From the NCBI GenBank assembly GCA_964497645.1, contig CAZCCU010000003.1, forward strand, positions 1 to 62,561: a stretch of 62,561 nt of DNA. The letters are read 5' to 3'. This document shows, one piece after another, positions 358-36,674 of the stretch. Both the position numbers and the translations under genes were made by a program. This DNA comes from an uncultured Methanosarcinales archaeon. GTDB lineage: Archaea > Nanobdellota > Nanobdellia > Woesearchaeales > ARS49. The first letter of the stretch is position 1, and every line of letters begins with the position of its first letter. Under the pieces are notes generated by a model, which saw nothing but the letters and a program-made list of their open reading frames with translations, did no database searches and had not been told where the DNA came from.

Positions 358-1638
358 ATGATAGATGTGCAAACTCCGGAAATTGACGGCTTGTTCAGTG
401 CAGGAGTCTGGAGACCAAACATGGATACGACAGACTACCATCGATTTAGCAAGCAATACCAGACGGCGATTACGAGGCTCTGGAAGGCAAAAATGCCCGA
501 AGACGATAAAAGACTCGTCGAGAAGTTTGCACGCGACGTAAAGGCAGATGGAACGGGTTATTCGCGCCTTACGAAACTTGTGCGAAACCTTGCGGTTATC
601 GGTGAAGCGTTAGGCAAACAGTTCAAACAGGCAACCGTTGAGGATATCCGAAGGATTGTCCATGTTTACGAATCAGGCAATTATTCTGTTTGGACAAAGC
701 ACGACGTGAAAGTCATACTGAAACAATTTTACAAATGGCTTGACGGAGAGGATTATCCGAAAGTTGTCAAATGGATTTGCACTACTATTCCGCAAAAAGA
801 CAAGCCGTTAACCCAAGAATCTGAACTTCTTACAGAAGATGAGGTTAACAAGTTGATAGCGACAGCTGACCATCCACGAAATAAGGCAGTAATCGCAATA
901 TTAGCAGAAAGTGGGGCACGCATTGGTGAAATTGGCAACTTAACCATCGGTCAAATCAAGATTGATGCAAGCGGTACTGTGTTGAATGTCTCTGGAAAGA
1001 CTGGCAGGCGAAGGTTACGCATAATTTCCGCTACGTCTTACTTAGTCAAATGGCTCGATATTCACCCTGACAATGCCAACCCCTACGCTCCGCTATGGGT
1101 GAATATCGGAACGAAAGACTACCACAAACAAACGACCTATGAAGGCATCCGCAAGATTTTGATAGAAACTTTCAAAAAAGCTGGCATCAAAAAACGCTGC
1201 CACCCGTACATTTTCAGGCACAGCAGAGCTTCACAACTTGCCAGACACCTGACAGAATACCAAATGAACGCTTATTTCGGCTGGATACAAGGAAGCAGGA
1301 TGCCATCTTGTTACGTCCACATTTCTGGCAAGGATTTGGATGAAGACATACTGCGCATTAACGGAATGAAGCCAGGAGAAAAACCAATACCCTACAAACC
1401 ACAACTCAGAGCCTGCCCAAGATGCAGAGAAATCAACAGTCCAAACGCCTTGTACTGCTGCAAGTGTGCGGAAATCGTAGACCCCACGCTTGCCTTGAAA
1501 AGCAAGCTGGAAGAAGCCGAAAAACCTGCCAATATAGTCAAGAGTCCATTTCTCGAATGGGTGCAAAACGACCCAGAACTGCGGGAAATGCTCAAGCGCA
1601 AAGCGATGGAGTTCAAAGATGAAATCCAGCCAATCTAG
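358..1638 (+). CDS. Tyrosine recombinase / phage-type integrase with C-terminal zinc ribbon
   Basis: Catalytic-domain motifs ESGARIGE, HPYIFRHSRASQL (H-x-x-R) and SCYVHISGKD (Tyr region). C-terminal CPRC...CCKC ribbon. Confidence 0.85.
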   Translation: MIDVQTPEIDGLFSAGVWRPNMDTTDYHRFSKQYQTAITRLWKAKMPEDDKRLVEKFARDVKADGTGYSRLTKLVRNLAVIGEALGKQFKQATVEDIRRIVHVYESGNYSVWTKHDVKVILKQFYKWLDGEDYPKVVKWICTTIPQKDKPLTQESELLTEDEVNKLIATADHPRNKAVIAILAESGARIGEIGNLTIGQIKIDASGTVLNVSGKTGRRRLRIISATSYLVKWLDIHPDNANPYAPLWVNIGTKDYHKQTTYEGIRKILIETFKKAGIKKRCHPYIFRHSRASQLARHLTEYQMNAYFGWIQGSRMPSCYVHISGKDLDEDILRINGMKPGEKPIPYKPQLRACPRCREINSPNALYCCKCAEIVDPTLALKSKLEEAEKPANIVKSPFLEWVQNDPELREMLKRKAMEFKDEIQPI

Positions 1639-33615: not shown

Positions 33616-34326
33616 TTACTTATAAACTTTTTGGCTTAATGCAACAATCTGCGCGACTGCTGTTATGCCTGCAGTCTCAGTGCGTAATATCGTCGGCCCA
33701 AGCGAGACGAATGTGCATCCTGCTTCTTTTGCTGCCGCAAGCTCTGCTTCGGTGAAGTCTCCTTCTGGTCCAACTATTGCAAGCACGGTTGCGCATTCAC
33801 AATACGCCTTGACAAGTGGTTGTCCTGTTTTGTGGCATAAAAACGCGTGATTGTAATTTTTTATCGTCGATAAAACCTCGGCAAACGGTATAGGAACAGA
33901 TATCGTAGGCACTATGCTTCTCTCACTTTGCGCACATGCTTCTAGTGCGATCCTTCGCAGTCTTTCTATTTTTGCCTCTCTTGGCTGTACAACGCTCCTG
34001 CTGCAAATGATAGGCACTATGCTACTAGCTCCTATTTCACTCACTTTTTCTACGAGAACATCCATTCTATCCCCTTTAGGCACCGCGATTGCGAGTGTTA
34101 TATTGACTTTGGGCTCTTCCCTAGGCTTTATTGCCTTCTCTGGGAGCATTCTGCCTTTACTCACTTTTTCAGAATAAACAGCTTCAAATTCGTGTCCTTT
34201 GCCATCAAATACTCCTATTTTCTCTCCTTCTTTCAATCTGAGAACCTTCAGGTGCCTAATTTGGTCTCTTGTAAGGGCTATTTCCTTGTCAAGTTCAGCT
34301 CCTGGAACGTATAATCGAACTCTCAC
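33616..34326 (-). CDS. rsmE: 16S rRNA (uracil-N3)-methyltransferase RsmE family
   Basis: PKGDRMDVLVEKVSEIGASSIVPI and IVGPEGDFTEAE...LGPTILRTETA. Confidence 0.7.
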   Translation of the reverse strand: MRVRLYVPGAELDKEIALTRDQIRHLKVLRLKEGEKIGVFDGKGHEFEAVYSEKVSKGRMLPEKAIKPREEPKVNITLAIAVPKGDRMDVLVEKVSEIGASSIVPIICSRSVVQPREAKIERLRRIALEACAQSERSIVPTISVPIPFAEVLSTIKNYNHAFLCHKTGQPLVKAYCECATVLAIVGPEGDFTEAELAAAKEAGCTFVSLGPTILRTETAGITAVAQIVALSQKVYK

Positions 34327-34622
34327 TTTTTGCTCACAAATTCATAGTTTTTAATAATCTTCTGGTGCCCAACTAACATTGAGGTTCTTAACCCTTGAAC
34401 TTTTAGGCACTACGTCAACAACCAAAACGTGATGTTGTCAAAATGACTCTGATGTCGCCAATCTGACTTATTTCTGTCAGTTTGACAAATTTTTTCCCGC
34501 ACCCTGTTTCCAGCCAAAAACCCGGTCACGGTCAAGGCTTATTTCGCTACGATCAATCGCAACTCAGTTTGGACTGTCTGGTTGTTAACCCAGGTAAGGA
34601 ATACCTCCTATTTTAATGTTTC

Positions 34623-34881
34623 TGTCCTGTCCCAGACCTGTCCCAGTCCTGAGACGGTCCTGAGACCGTCCCAGTTGCACATATAATATAGTCGAATAAT
34701 CAGTCCTAAGATAGTCCCAAATTAGTCCCAATCAAATCCTGAGACTGTCCTGGGACGGTCCTGAGACTATCTTGAGACGTTCCCAGGACTGTCCCAGTCC
34801 CAGCATTTTATCGTCGATAAATTAGTCCTGGGACGGTCCGAAATAGTCCCAGTCCCAAACACACATATGGGACCGTCCCAT
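34623..34881. repeat. Dense iteron array built on GTCC(C/T)(A/G)R
   Basis: I count 18 top-strand GTCC tetramers in about 260 bp. The longer unit GTCCTGRGAC occurs about 6 times and GTCCCAG about 6 times. Hairpin GACGGTC-CTGA-GACCGTC at 34653-34670. Palindrome ATGGGACCGTCCCAT at 34867-34881. Confidence 0.85.
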
Positions 34882-34899
34882 GACTGCACAACAATAAAC

Positions 34900-34907
34900 T
34901 TTTTAAA
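34900..34907 (+). promoter_or_regulatory. TATA-like TTTTTAAA
   Basis: Lies 23 nt upstream of the ATG at 34930 and immediately after the last iteron. Confidence 0.45.
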
Positions 34908-34929
34908 TGAAGTTCCATTAGCACCTTTC

Positions 34930-35610
34930 ATGTTTGATTTTTTTGGAACAACAAAAAAGATGGCTGAGATGGACAGGTCTGTCTCGCAGTCGTTCGCGAA
35001 GGTGAAGCAGGATACAGAGTCTCTTTACCAGTGGGTGAGCTACTTGTACCAGCAAAACCAGCAGCTCGTCGAGCAGAACGCTGCCTTGAAGCGTCTTACG
35101 GAAGAGCAAAAATTTGCTCTGAACGAAGTGAAAGTTACAGTTCAGCACTTGCCGAAGACGCCGCATGAGATCAAAACAATCGTCGAGCAGTACTACAACT
35201 TCGAGCCGATTCTTCAAAGAATCAAGCACATCGAATCAAAGATTGAACTGCTCGAGATTCGTCGTCAAGAGAGGCCTGTTTTCCGCCCTTTGGATCACCA
35301 ATCTCCTAGCGTGAGCGCTCCTGTTGCCGTCGAAAGGACGTCAAGCACCGCTTTGAAGGAAAAGCTTATGCGCAAGCTTGCCCGCAATAGCAAGGACTAC
35401 ATCAAGAATCTCGTCCTGGGCCTTGTGCACAAGTACGGGAAGATGGGCGCTCTCCAGCTCAGAGAGATTGTAGTGGAAGAACAAGGCCTGTGCTCAAAAT
35501 CAAGCTTTTACCGCGTTCTGGAAGAGATGGAAAAAGAGAGCTCATTGCAGATTATCAGCGACGGAAAACACACTGTTTACGTGGCTGCTGCTCAGCACGC
35601 AGCGCAATAA
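34930..35610 (+). CDS. Coiled-coil protein with C-terminal winged-helix domain
   Basis: N-terminal heptads. C-terminal LVHKYGKMGALQLREIVVEEQGLCSKSSFYRVLEEMEKE...DGKHTVYV. The track start 34867 lies inside the iteron palindrome, so the ATG at 34930 is preferred. Confidence 0.55.
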   Translation: MFDFFGTTKKMAEMDRSVSQSFAKVKQDTESLYQWVSYLYQQNQQLVEQNAALKRLTEEQKFALNEVKVTVQHLPKTPHEIKTIVEQYYNFEPILQRIKHIESKIELLEIRRQERPVFRPLDHQSPSVSAPVAVERTSSTALKEKLMRKLARNSKDYIKNLVLGLVHKYGKMGALQLREIVVEEQGLCSKSSFYRVLEEMEKESSLQIISDGKHTVYVAAAQHAAQ

Positions 35611-35683: not shown

Positions 35684-36220
35684 GTGGTTGAAATTCGTGA
35701 CAAGCAAGAGTTATTGCTGTCGAGTGATGCAGATGTGTTCCGCCAGGAACTCTCCGTAGTGCTGTCGTGCATGAGGGAGGAGTTGGACGACCACAGATTG
35801 GCCGTTAATGAGAACACTGATGAGCTTGCAGCGACGAACGAGTTCTTGAATGAACTCTCAAAAAAGCTGGACAAGCTGACAGAGCGTGTTGACGAGCTTA
35901 CCTTGCACGTCAAGGGCCGGAAAGAGGAGAAGAAATTCCAGATTGAGCCATTGACGAACAAGGAGAAGGAAGTCTTCCAGGCGCTTTATTTGCTCACCGA
36001 GAGTCAGCCTTATGCCTCTTACGAGCATATTGCGAGAAAGACCATGCTGGCAAAGGGTGTCGTGATGGACCTCGCTACCTGCATGATTCAGAAGGGTGTG
36101 CCGATTGTGAAGAAGCTTGACGGCACAACTGTTTTCTTGAAGCTTGATGCAGAATTCCGTCAATTGCAGGCCAAGCAGAACATTATTGGCTTGAATTCTC
36201 TTCTGTCGGCGTGGGGTTAG
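35684..36220 (+). CDS. Coiled-coil protein with C-terminal winged-helix domain (same architecture as the upstream gene)
   Basis: LTNKEKEVFQALYLLTESQPYASYEHIARKTMLAKGVVMDLATCMIQKGVPIVKKLDGTTVFLKL. Confidence 0.55.
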   Translation: MVEIRDKQELLLSSDADVFRQELSVVLSCMREELDDHRLAVNENTDELAATNEFLNELSKKLDKLTERVDELTLHVKGRKEEKKFQIEPLTNKEKEVFQALYLLTESQPYASYEHIARKTMLAKGVVMDLATCMIQKGVPIVKKLDGTTVFLKLDAEFRQLQAKQNIIGLNSLLSAWG

Positions 36221-36674
36221 ACCTTAATTTTTCTTTTTTTATCTCGTTCTGAAGGTGTTCGATCATTCTGAAGCTGGAGTCCATGTGTGCTTTCAGCGTC
36301 GCTTCTGCTTTCCTGAATGCTCCTTCGAGATTCGTGCCATTCAGCTCGTAGCCGATGACGACTTTTCCGCTTGAGACAAAGCTTGTTTTTTTCAAAATCT
36401 GCAGGTCCAGCCATCGTCGTAGGTAATCGTACATCGTCTGGCGTTTGATTCCAGCATGCAATGCCATTTCTTCGACTGGCATGACTGCCGCTTCTGGCCT
36501 TTTCTCACGGTTAGCCTCTTTCTTGCGCTCGTACAGTTGTAGCAGTAGTTTGTGGAGTTGTGCGCTGCCGTCTTTTTTTCTCGGCAGGAGTCCAAAGCGT
36601 GCAAGAAGTACCTTCGAGAGTTCTTCAACTTCGTGGTTTACCGGTTCCGCGTTGCCAAGCAAAAATTCCATCAT
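36183..36674 (-). CDS. HTH DNA-binding protein
   Basis: EEMALHAGIKRQTMYDYLRRWLDLQIL. Convergent with the 35684 gene, with a 38-bp overlap. Confidence 0.5.
   Translation of the reverse strand: MMEFLLGNAEPVNHEVEELSKVLLARFGLLPRKKDGSAQLHKLLLQLYERKKEANREKRPEAAVMPVEEMALHAGIKRQTMYDYLRRWLDLQILKKTSFVSSGKVVIGYELNGTNLEGAFRKAEATLKAHMDSSFRMIEHLQNEIKKEKLRSNPTPTEENSSQ

Follow-up and report, generated by a model that had tools for sequence, protein, structure and literature searches.

Contig CAZCCU010000003.1 (assembly GCA_964497645.1), whose entire 62,561 nucleotides are referred to here as the window, carries an array of short repeats (iterons) at 34624–34881, directly upstream of an operon encoding two predicted winged-helix proteins, P1 and P2. 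On balance, the sequence favours the array being a cooperative binding platform for P1, probably together with P2, through which these proteins would autoregulate their own operon. This reading is suggested by the 11-bp period of the repeats, by indels of 11 bp, by the invariant core and by the fixed position at the promoter of an operon for two winged-helix proteins. With such an array conserved in front of the same gene pair in 80 genomes, the dense cooperative coating by a DNA-binding protein that the original prediction proposed from the window alone would still be the best reading.

Repeat units and their conservation

The tetramer GTCC occurs 18 times on the + strand of 34623–34881 (first to last, 34624–34875), compared with 199 occurrences in the entire 62.5-kb window, 181 of which lie outside the array. 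Taking the background rate from the remainder of the window, 0.75 copies are expected per 259 bp; the Poisson probability of observing 18 or more is 4.6e-19 (∼3e-14 when corrected for all window positions), and in any other 260-bp stretch of the window the count never exceeds 4–5. The packing of about 18 GTCC tetramers into this interval, originally counted by eye, is thus confirmed. The pattern GTCC[CT][AG][AG] fits 15 of the 18 copies. Among longer forms, GTCCTGRGAC was found five times in the array region and seven times window-wide, and GTCCCAG six and seven times, respectively, the six copies agreeing with the earlier estimate. When both strands of the window are considered, 13 of the 22 copies of GTCCCA fall in the array. 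The positions that had been given for a hairpin-capable element (34653–34670), a terminal palindrome (34867–34881), an 18-nt gap to the TATA box and the ATG at 34930 all match the sequence.

The unit of the array has a period of 11 bp, with spacings of 11 and 22 bp, a TCCCA core and the consensus gA(C/T)A(G/T)TCCCA(R); the two strands both carry readable sites. A weight matrix (consensus GACAGTCCCAG) was trained solely on the relatives L002–L018, with the window kept out of training. At a threshold of at least 7 bits on both strands, the matrix returned 27 sites in 34600–34930 and 71 in the other 62 kb; the latter represent background, since shuffled versions of the whole window give ∼76. At 13 bits or more, 15 of the 16 matches across the 62.5 kb belong to the array and one lies outside. 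Both the 11-bp units and the matrix matches bear out the view that this is an array of short iterons, to which the 11-bp phasing, the sites on both strands and an embedded palindrome, TTATCGTCGATAA, are additions beyond the first reading. A CRISPR array, already dismissed in that reading, is excluded, as the array consists of contiguous, degenerate 11-bp units rather than identical 24–48-bp repeats with unique spacers of similar length.

A scan of one genome per species identified 158 loci encoding P1 relatives, and the best 80 of these 158 were used for the comparisons. A cluster of TCCCA-type units is present within 400 bp upstream of P1 in 80 of 80 loci, and P1 and P2 are adjacent in every one of the 80 whose contig reaches that far. 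Counted together, TCCCA and TGGGA occur at 26 per kb between −450 and +30 of P1 vs 1.27 per kb in the remaining 648 kb, with the excess limited to −400 to 0. Neither in the window nor in the 648 kb of related loci, therefore, is the motif comparably dense outside the array. Forward TCCCA outnumbers the reverse orientation by ∼4:1 across loci. Furthermore, the distances between pairs of TCCCA in the 80 loci show sharp peaks at 11, 22, 33, 44, 55 and 66 bp, with a minor peak at 6 bp, and runs of three TCCCA at 11-bp spacing were found in 43 arrays and never outside arrays.

The logo gA(C/T)A(G/T)TCCCA(R) was recovered in each of the four identity classes; close relatives favour G and C at unit positions −1 and −3, and T is commoner in distant ones. 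At 72–97% P1 identity the array aligns position by position, whereas the remaining intergenic region does not, and indels inside the array of close relatives are exactly 11 bp. The number of core sites per array across relatives has a median of 9 over ∼195 bp and a maximum of 27, and one array is seen per locus.

The search was also extended to IMG/VR with a pattern of four TCCCA at 11 bp. This pattern proved too generic to be informative here, as it matched at least 120 phage contigs with unrelated arrays and no P1 or P2 homologue. These viral arrays, which the pattern itself selected for, have 11-bp phasing and a TCCCA core (L081–L200); they include AGTCCCAAATT repeated five times in L134, TGTCCCA-type units in L102 and L111, and GCTATCCCAYG in dozens of contigs.

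The entire array (34624–34881), with its ∼18 GTCC-type units on the + strand, or 27 matrix sites on both strands, in 11-bp phase, occupies the right half of a 600-bp intergenic region and consists of three blocks (34624–34674, 34703–34803 and 34825–34881) with two A+T-rich islands between them. Block A (34624–34674) comprises GTCCTGTCCCAG and ACCTGTCCCAG, followed by overlapping quasi-palindromic CTGAGAC-N-GTCCYRG units with centres 11 bp apart; the hairpin-capable GACGGTC-CTGA-GACCGTC lies within it. Its matrix sites start at 34625, 34636, 34642, 34653 and 34664 on the + strand and at 34649 and 34660 on the − strand, and the block is near-invariant among relatives of 72–97% identity. The first A+T-rich island (34675–34702, GTTGCACATATAATATAGTCGAATAATCA), of which CACATATAATATAGTC is kept in close relatives, separates blocks A and B. 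Block B (34703–34803) contains nine consecutive 11-bp units (starts 34703, 34714 … 34791) with an extra unit 6 bp on, at 34797, and close relatives differ here by the gain or loss of exactly one 11-bp unit.

The 13-bp palindrome TTATCGTCGATAA is found inside the array at 34808–34820, in an extended form TTTATCG-T-CGATAAA at 34807–34821. In 25 of the 80 loci, down to 37% P1 identity, the array contains an exact or near-exact copy; the distance of these copies to the P1 start is variable, and the central T is almost always on the P1 strand. The palindrome is a second conserved element, at which another protein (P2 or hyp163, a hypothetical protein encoded beyond P2) may bind, or which may be a back-to-back pair of TATA-like boxes. 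Block C (34825–34858) contributes GTCCTGGGACGGTCC and TAGTCCCAGTCCCAA, and the array ends with the promoter-proximal inverted half-sites ATGGGAC-C-GTCCCAT (34867–34881), which have perfect 7-bp arms and of which TGGGACNGTCC occupies the same place in close relatives.

Candidate binding proteins and flanking promoters

P1 (34930–35610, + strand, 226 amino acids) carries the conserved MFD(L/F)F peptide at its N-terminus, and its start at 34930 (MFD…) is fixed by the family alignment. In the AlphaFold2 (AF2) model, which is confident, with a predicted local distance difference test (pLDDT) score of 84, the long N-terminal coiled coil is connected through the disordered linker (model residues 110–128) to the C-terminal winged helix, in keeping with the earlier description of the downstream gene as a winged helix-turn-helix gene. 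The predicted helix-turn-helix (HTH) block of P1, LQLREIVVEEQGLCSKSSFYRILEEME, is nearly invariant down to 38% overall identity, and GLCSKSSFYR of the predicted HTH is nearly invariant across the family.

Searching the P1 model against the PDB with Foldseek gave generic winged-helix matches alone (Hop2 winged-helix domain, ArsR, MarR and PadR), all with E-values of 3e-3 or above. Likewise, some family members showed sub-threshold, non-significant matches to the Hop2/TBPIP winged-helix domain and to ScpB. The family has 543 members at E ≤ 1e-3 among 1.84 billion representative proteins, and the relatives listed are mostly ∼180–320 amino acids long, with no longer fused form standing out. A tblastn search with P1 against the PLSDB plasmids and the INPHARED phages gave no match, and an origin from a mobile element was rejected on this ground.

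P2 (35684–36220, + strand, 178 amino acids), which is always encoded beside P1, consists of a long helix bearing the near-invariant motif REELDDHRxAINENTxE, followed by a winged helix. This helical motif is the best-conserved part of the protein; the recognition helix of the winged helix varies. The P2 model, searched in the same way as that of P1, gave generic fold matches (MarR, AdcR, AF1382 and AspA), and profile–profile comparison of P1 with P2 detected no relation between them. Near-invariant peptides are therefore found outside the DNA-binding domains of both proteins, at residues 1–7 of P1 (34930–34950) and 31–47 of P2 (35774–35824), and MFD(L/F)F of P1 and REELDDHRxAINENTxE of P2 are candidate partner- or membrane-binding surfaces.

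The third protein, hyp163 (36183–36674, − strand, 163 amino acids), is encoded convergently with P2, with a 38-bp overlap, and by eye resembles an HTH protein. Its conservation, at 60–95% identity across loci, exceeds that of P1 and P2. It has 409 homologues, for which the source names among the 120 listed are all Woesearchaeota; its link to the array is uncertain. For P1, P2 and hyp163, attempts at family assignment with Pfam, NCBIfam, PDB profiles and AF2 plus Foldseek gave generic winged-helix and coiled-coil similarity only, and in the literature we found no description of the array or of these protein families.

The promoter of the P1–P2 operon lies at 34892–34907 (+ strand) and comprises a B recognition element (BRE)-like sequence, CAATAAAC, and the TATA box TTTTTAAA (34900–34907), which is separated from the terminal palindrome by 18 nt. 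The P1 ATG at 34930 is 30 nt past the start of this TATA box. When 77 P1 upstream regions were aligned on the start codon, nearly all had an A-rich BRE together with TTTAAATA or TTTTTATA approximately 25–30 nt before the ATG; the P1–P2 transcript is therefore leaderless. The alignment thus upholds the proposal of an array next to a BRE/TATA promoter with a leaderless start. The last iteron adjoins the BRE/TATA in nearly all loci, and in several of the distant loci the TATA box is directly followed by an inverted TTGGGA(A/C)T, so that it is bracketed by sites.

A candidate divergent promoter, GACAGAAAC-ATTAAAATA, is present on the − strand at the left edge of the array (34609–34624; BRE-like 34618–34624, TATA-like 34609–34617). 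The element is kept in close relatives, and as CAAAAGG-TTTAAATA in the clade of L024, L025, L033, L034 and L080. Judged by its similarity to the P1 promoter, it would point away from the array. The array thus seemingly lies between two outward-facing promoters, since the left-edge element matches the P1 promoter consensus on the − strand. The putative left-edge transcript would span the non-conserved spacer at 34420–34590, and none of the small open reading frames (ORFs) in the intergenic region is credible or conserved. A sigma-70 promoter and terminator scan was set aside as inapplicable to an archaeon; its sole terminator-like match was the terminal palindrome.

Weighing the proposed binding platform against other readings

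With the unit gA(C/T)A(G/T)TCCCA(R) recurring every 11 bp, binding sites would lie on nearly one face of the DNA over ∼260 bp. P1 appears to be the best candidate binder, because its HTH matches the motif core in invariance, its gene always lies beside the array and its linker would let a dimer reach neighbouring direct repeats; the likeliest arrangement has it binding jointly with its constant neighbour P2. Coiled-coil dimers, or P1–P2 complexes, could occupy neighbouring units cooperatively via their flexibly linked winged helices, giving a continuous nucleoprotein filament. This filament would end at the inverted half-sites at 34867–34881, just upstream of the P1–P2 BRE/TATA, where the complex would set transcription of the operon, and it probably acts too on the divergent promoter-like element at the left edge. 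P2 may serve as a partner or adaptor, or may itself bind the palindrome TTATCGTCGATAA. Autoregulation would follow from this layout, as a complex so placed must influence the P1–P2 promoter. What the sequences show directly is the array with its phasing, its restriction to this position within the DNA examined, its conservation ahead of the P1–P2 pair, the promoter arrangement and the predicted folds; the identity of the binder, the cooperativity and the sign of the regulation are all points that we infer from sequence and layout.

Winged helices of the OmpR/PhoB type bind head-to-tail on direct repeats with an 11-bp period. As judged by layout, the array resembles pho and OmpR boxes, on which such proteins sit head-to-tail on 10–11-bp direct repeats just upstream of the core promoter. 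However, those boxes have 2–6 half-sites compared with the 18–27 here, and OmpR and PhoB are bacterial proteins with receiver domains and no sequence relationship to the proteins considered here.

Several points weigh against a cooperative, autoregulatory platform for P1. The choice of P1 over P2, hyp163 or an unlinked factor is drawn from adjacency and patterns of conservation. In the window, 18 nt separate the TATA box from the end of the nearest strong site, a position that suits activation or an architectural role as well as repression, and a symmetric coiled-coil homodimer would fit poorly onto direct repeats. Nor do the motif core and the protein co-vary; comparison of homologous loci, suggested in the original prediction as a test for co-variation, showed repeat and protein to be co-conserved and gave no covariation signal, because the TCCCA core and the P1 HTH are both invariant. 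Moreover, 1–3 sites would suffice for autoregulation, which on its own does not explain an array of this size (18–27 sites, 260 bp). Since the number of sites exceeds the need of an operator, and the array has been retained in a lineage with reduced genomes, an added architectural role, for example as a centromere or tether, is suggested. Of the functions first put forward (a centromere, an iteron origin or an autoregulatory array), autoregulation is thus supported by the layout and an origin is disfavoured, as set out below; a centromere is possible, with no motor NTPase linked to the array.

Close parallels in layout are found among plasmid partition loci. In R1, the parC site places ten 11-bp iterons on either side of the promoter for the ParR operon, as two blocks. 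The array is like R1 parC/ParR, pB171 parC1/parC2 and TP228 parH/ParG in its short direct repeats phased about one helical turn apart, and like type Ib/II centromeres, whose binding is cooperative and DNA-coating, it would double as the operator of the binder operon, a likeness read here from the layout. In contrast, ParR and ParG are ribbon-helix-helix dimers, whereas the candidates here combine coiled coils with winged helices; the partition operons of R1, pB171 and TP228 include a motor (ParM or ParA), and none is linked here; and this array is chromosomal, archaeal and lineage-wide rather than carried on a mobile element. Among archaeal systems, AspA (pNOB8) and SegB (Sulfolobus) are comparable as small DNA-binding proteins encoded beside their site and heading their own operon. 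AspA, a DNA-spreading winged helix, is a fold match to P2 (TM-score ∼0.55–0.65, E ∼4e-3), although this match is no better than many to MarR, ArsR and PadR proteins. However, AspA nucleates at one palindrome and partners ParB and ParA, and SegB partners the ParA-like SegA (PMC8682754), whereas no ATPase is linked to the array.

Replicons offer a second set of parallels. In Rep_3 replicons (pPS10 RepA, F RepE and R6K pi), as here, direct iterons and an inverted repeat of the same half-site are found at the promoter of a winged-helix gene, and in the classic reading Rep monomers on the iterons initiate replication and dimers on the inverted repeat repress. Unlike the 11-bp units of the array, Rep iterons are 17–22 bp long at ∼22-bp spacing, and Rep has two winged helices, whereas P1 has one plus a coiled coil and no match to a Rep family. 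Archaeal oriC regions, with origin recognition boxes (ORBs) or mini-ORBs by orc1/cdc6, share with the array many short repeats in a long intergenic region of the core chromosome. ORBs, however, are dyads flanking an A+T-rich unwinding element beside orc1/cdc6, while the repeats here are mostly direct (∼4:1). The array therefore resembles parC/ParR and Rep-iteron/operator layouts, yet belongs to neither. Its novelty lies in being an iteron array that is carried on the chromosome, is conserved throughout a lineage of DPANN archaea and has novel coiled-coil winged-helix proteins as partners.

An alternative that overlaps with the cooperative platform, and that we regard as unlikely but deserving of attention, is a centromere-like or tethering site on the chromosome, which P1 would coat and for which P2 would act as adaptor; the complex would pair, position or anchor the chromosome, for example via the N-terminal MFD(L/F)F or the coiled coils, and autoregulation would be a by-product. 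The phased iteron blocks around the promoter of the binder operon would suit this by analogy with type Ib/II plasmid centromeres, as would a number of sites far above regulatory need and the single array seen per locus, in the core chromosome and kept across the lineage. The conserved N-terminal peptide, coiled coil and flexible linker of P1 are also in its favour, as are the conservation of P2, best in its helical motif and not in its HTH, and the presence of AspA among the P2 fold matches, alongside many generic winged helices. One feature of a partition locus, short repeats at the promoter of the binder operon, is present; another, an NTPase in the operon, is absent, as the operon consists of P1 and P2 only, both coiled-coil and winged-helix proteins. 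Among the neighbours tested within ∼5 kb, there was no match to a ParA, ParM, TubZ or SegA-type NTPase, and the immediate neighbours gave no Pfam or NCBIfam matches other than housekeeping genes. P1 is also without relatives in plasmid and phage collections, and the fold matches of P1 and P2 are generic: both are winged-helix proteins, but with regard to known classes of centromere binder (ribbon-helix-helix ParR/ParG, HTH ParB or winged-helix AspA) the AspA match to P2 is generic (E ∼4e-3) and there is no sequence-family match; P1 and P2 are neither ribbon-helix-helix nor ParB proteins. In its most specific form, a single-copy centromere particular to Woesearchaeales, with a P1-coated array, P2 as adaptor and no ParA/SegA-type motor encoded alongside, this proposal is likewise tentative and, in our view, rather unlikely.

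The remaining alternatives have less in their favour. That another factor, hyp163 or an unlinked regulator, binds the iterons and controls both outward promoters, with P1 and P2 as its targets, is quite improbable. The gene for hyp163 keeps its place in most loci, and the protein surpasses P1 and P2 in conservation, as would fit an invariant motif; the palindrome TTATCGTCGATAA and a cluster of the motif GGTGCCYAA (described below) point to more than one specificity in the intergenic region; however, arrays are present in many loci where hyp163 is not adjacent (L029–L031, L038, L039, L041, L046–L053 and others), whereas P1 and P2 always are, there are no iterons upstream of hyp163, and prokaryotic regulators are usually encoded beside their highest-affinity arrays. 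A replication origin, either of the iteron type, with P1 Rep-like and the terminal palindrome as operator, or of the Orc1/Cdc6 type with unusual ORBs, is very improbable. The combination of direct repeats and an inverted repeat that shares their sequence, placed at a winged-helix gene promoter, recalls iteron replicons, as does the T-rich or A+T-rich DNA beside the array in several relatives (L024, L019), and some archaeal origins carry many short mini-ORBs. The base composition argues otherwise. In a regression corrected for gene strand, applied to the window and to 50 loci, the + strand of the window has G>C (+0.073±0.012) and T>A (−0.166±0.017) on both sides of the array, with side terms (0.015±0.012 and −0.029±0.017) within ∼1–2 standard errors of zero. 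As the same bias is found on both sides, there is no skew reversal at the array, in contrast to iteron replicons and archaeal oriC, and the cumulative skew is monotonic with no turning point there. Across the 50 loci the side effect is small and purine-rich in both skews, which indicates gene content and not leading and lagging strands. With this bias holding across 62.5 kb whatever the gene orientation, the window looks like a single replichore whose + strand has a leading-strand signature. Moreover, no Orc1/Cdc6, Cdc6_C or other AAA+ initiator was found when 30 window ORFs, all of those of at least 300 amino acids included, were scanned against Pfam; the units are neither 17–22 bp long nor ORB-like dyads, A+T islands in the array do not exceed 28 bp, and P1 gave no Rep family match even at E 0.05 in 32 members. 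A replication origin is thus disfavoured. Finally, transcription of the region as a structured or repeat-containing RNA is scarcely credible. Both strands fold far better than shuffled sequences (z = −6.4 and −7.0), which is explained by the quasi-palindromic repeat units, and there is a TATA-like box at the left edge of the array, although this BRE/TATA matches the promoter consensus better when pointing away from it. In an alignment of 10 orthologous arrays the covariation term is unfavourable (+1.04 kcal/mol), with compensatory changes at 3 of 58 pairs and most pairs invariant; Rfam gave no match at the gathering score, and a permissive scan returned sub-threshold miRNA hairpins alone. The 11-bp period and 11-bp indels fit the helical phasing of DNA and not RNA helices. 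A structured RNA, which the original prediction had considered as a possible refutation, was accordingly rejected.

Chromosomal setting and significance

The window is core chromosome of an archaeon of the Woesearchaeota (DPANN). To the left of the array, on the − strand, are genes for an RsmE-type rRNA methyltransferase (33616–34326), RNA polymerase subunit L (RpoL), a hypothetical protein of 162 amino acids (hyp162), undecaprenyl-diphosphate synthase (UPPS) and the ribosomal proteins L1 and L10. To the right are P1 and P2 on the + strand and the convergent hyp163 on the − strand, all three lineage-specific and without a Pfam or NCBIfam family. The order UPPS, hyp162, RpoL, (RsmE), intergenic region, P1, P2, hyp163 is kept in most loci, down to 30% P1 identity. 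Genes elsewhere in the window encode phosphoenolpyruvate synthase, LonB, Kae1, LytB, a DEAD-box helicase, CCA-adding enzyme and NurA. A tyrosine recombinase (phage integrase family, E 4e-16) encoded at 358–1638 (+ strand), at the left end of the window and unrelated to the array, may mark an integrated element.

Homologues of P1, P2 and hyp163 are from Candidatus Woesearchaeota wherever the source is named. The records L001, L002, L005, L006, L014, L017, L018, L035 and others with this synteny and array are titled Methanosarcinales, and one is titled Patescibacteria; L001, which is among them, is the closest relative of the window, with 97% P1 identity. On records with Woesearchaeota-specific synteny, these Methanosarcinales and Patescibacteria labels are probably wrong.

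A second motif, GGTGCCYAA, occurs around the 5′ end and promoter of RsmE, at 34076–34084 (− strand), 34251–34259 (+), 34364–34372 (+) and, with one mismatch, 34403–34411 (−). The three exact copies in the 62.5-kb window are all at the RsmE cluster, and in relatives the motif lies 500–900 bp upstream of P1. For at least the copy at 34251, the conserved RsmE peptide IRHL may be the explanation. The two copies in the intergenic region are inverted relative to each other and lie a short way upstream of the TATA-like box of RsmE (34348–34358).

To our knowledge, almost nothing is known of how DPANN archaea regulate, organise or segregate their very small chromosomes, and most conserved lineage-specific DPANN genes lack an assigned function. 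The locus described here offers a defined cis element together with two or three candidate trans factors, all co-conserved across a lineage, and the hypothesis that these proteins bind the array is testable in vitro without cultivation. In addition, TCCCA at 11-bp phase upstream of P1–P2 is a compact signature by which Woesearchaeales contigs could be recognised. Should autoregulation be its only role, the array would still stand out among archaeal operators by its size and regularity, and would offer a clean model for the assembly of winged-helix filaments on direct repeats in phase. An architectural role would make it a new archaeal centromere or tether; and should a motor-less centromere prove true, the locus would represent a new kind of chromosome-handling system in archaea, to which autoregulation would be secondary.

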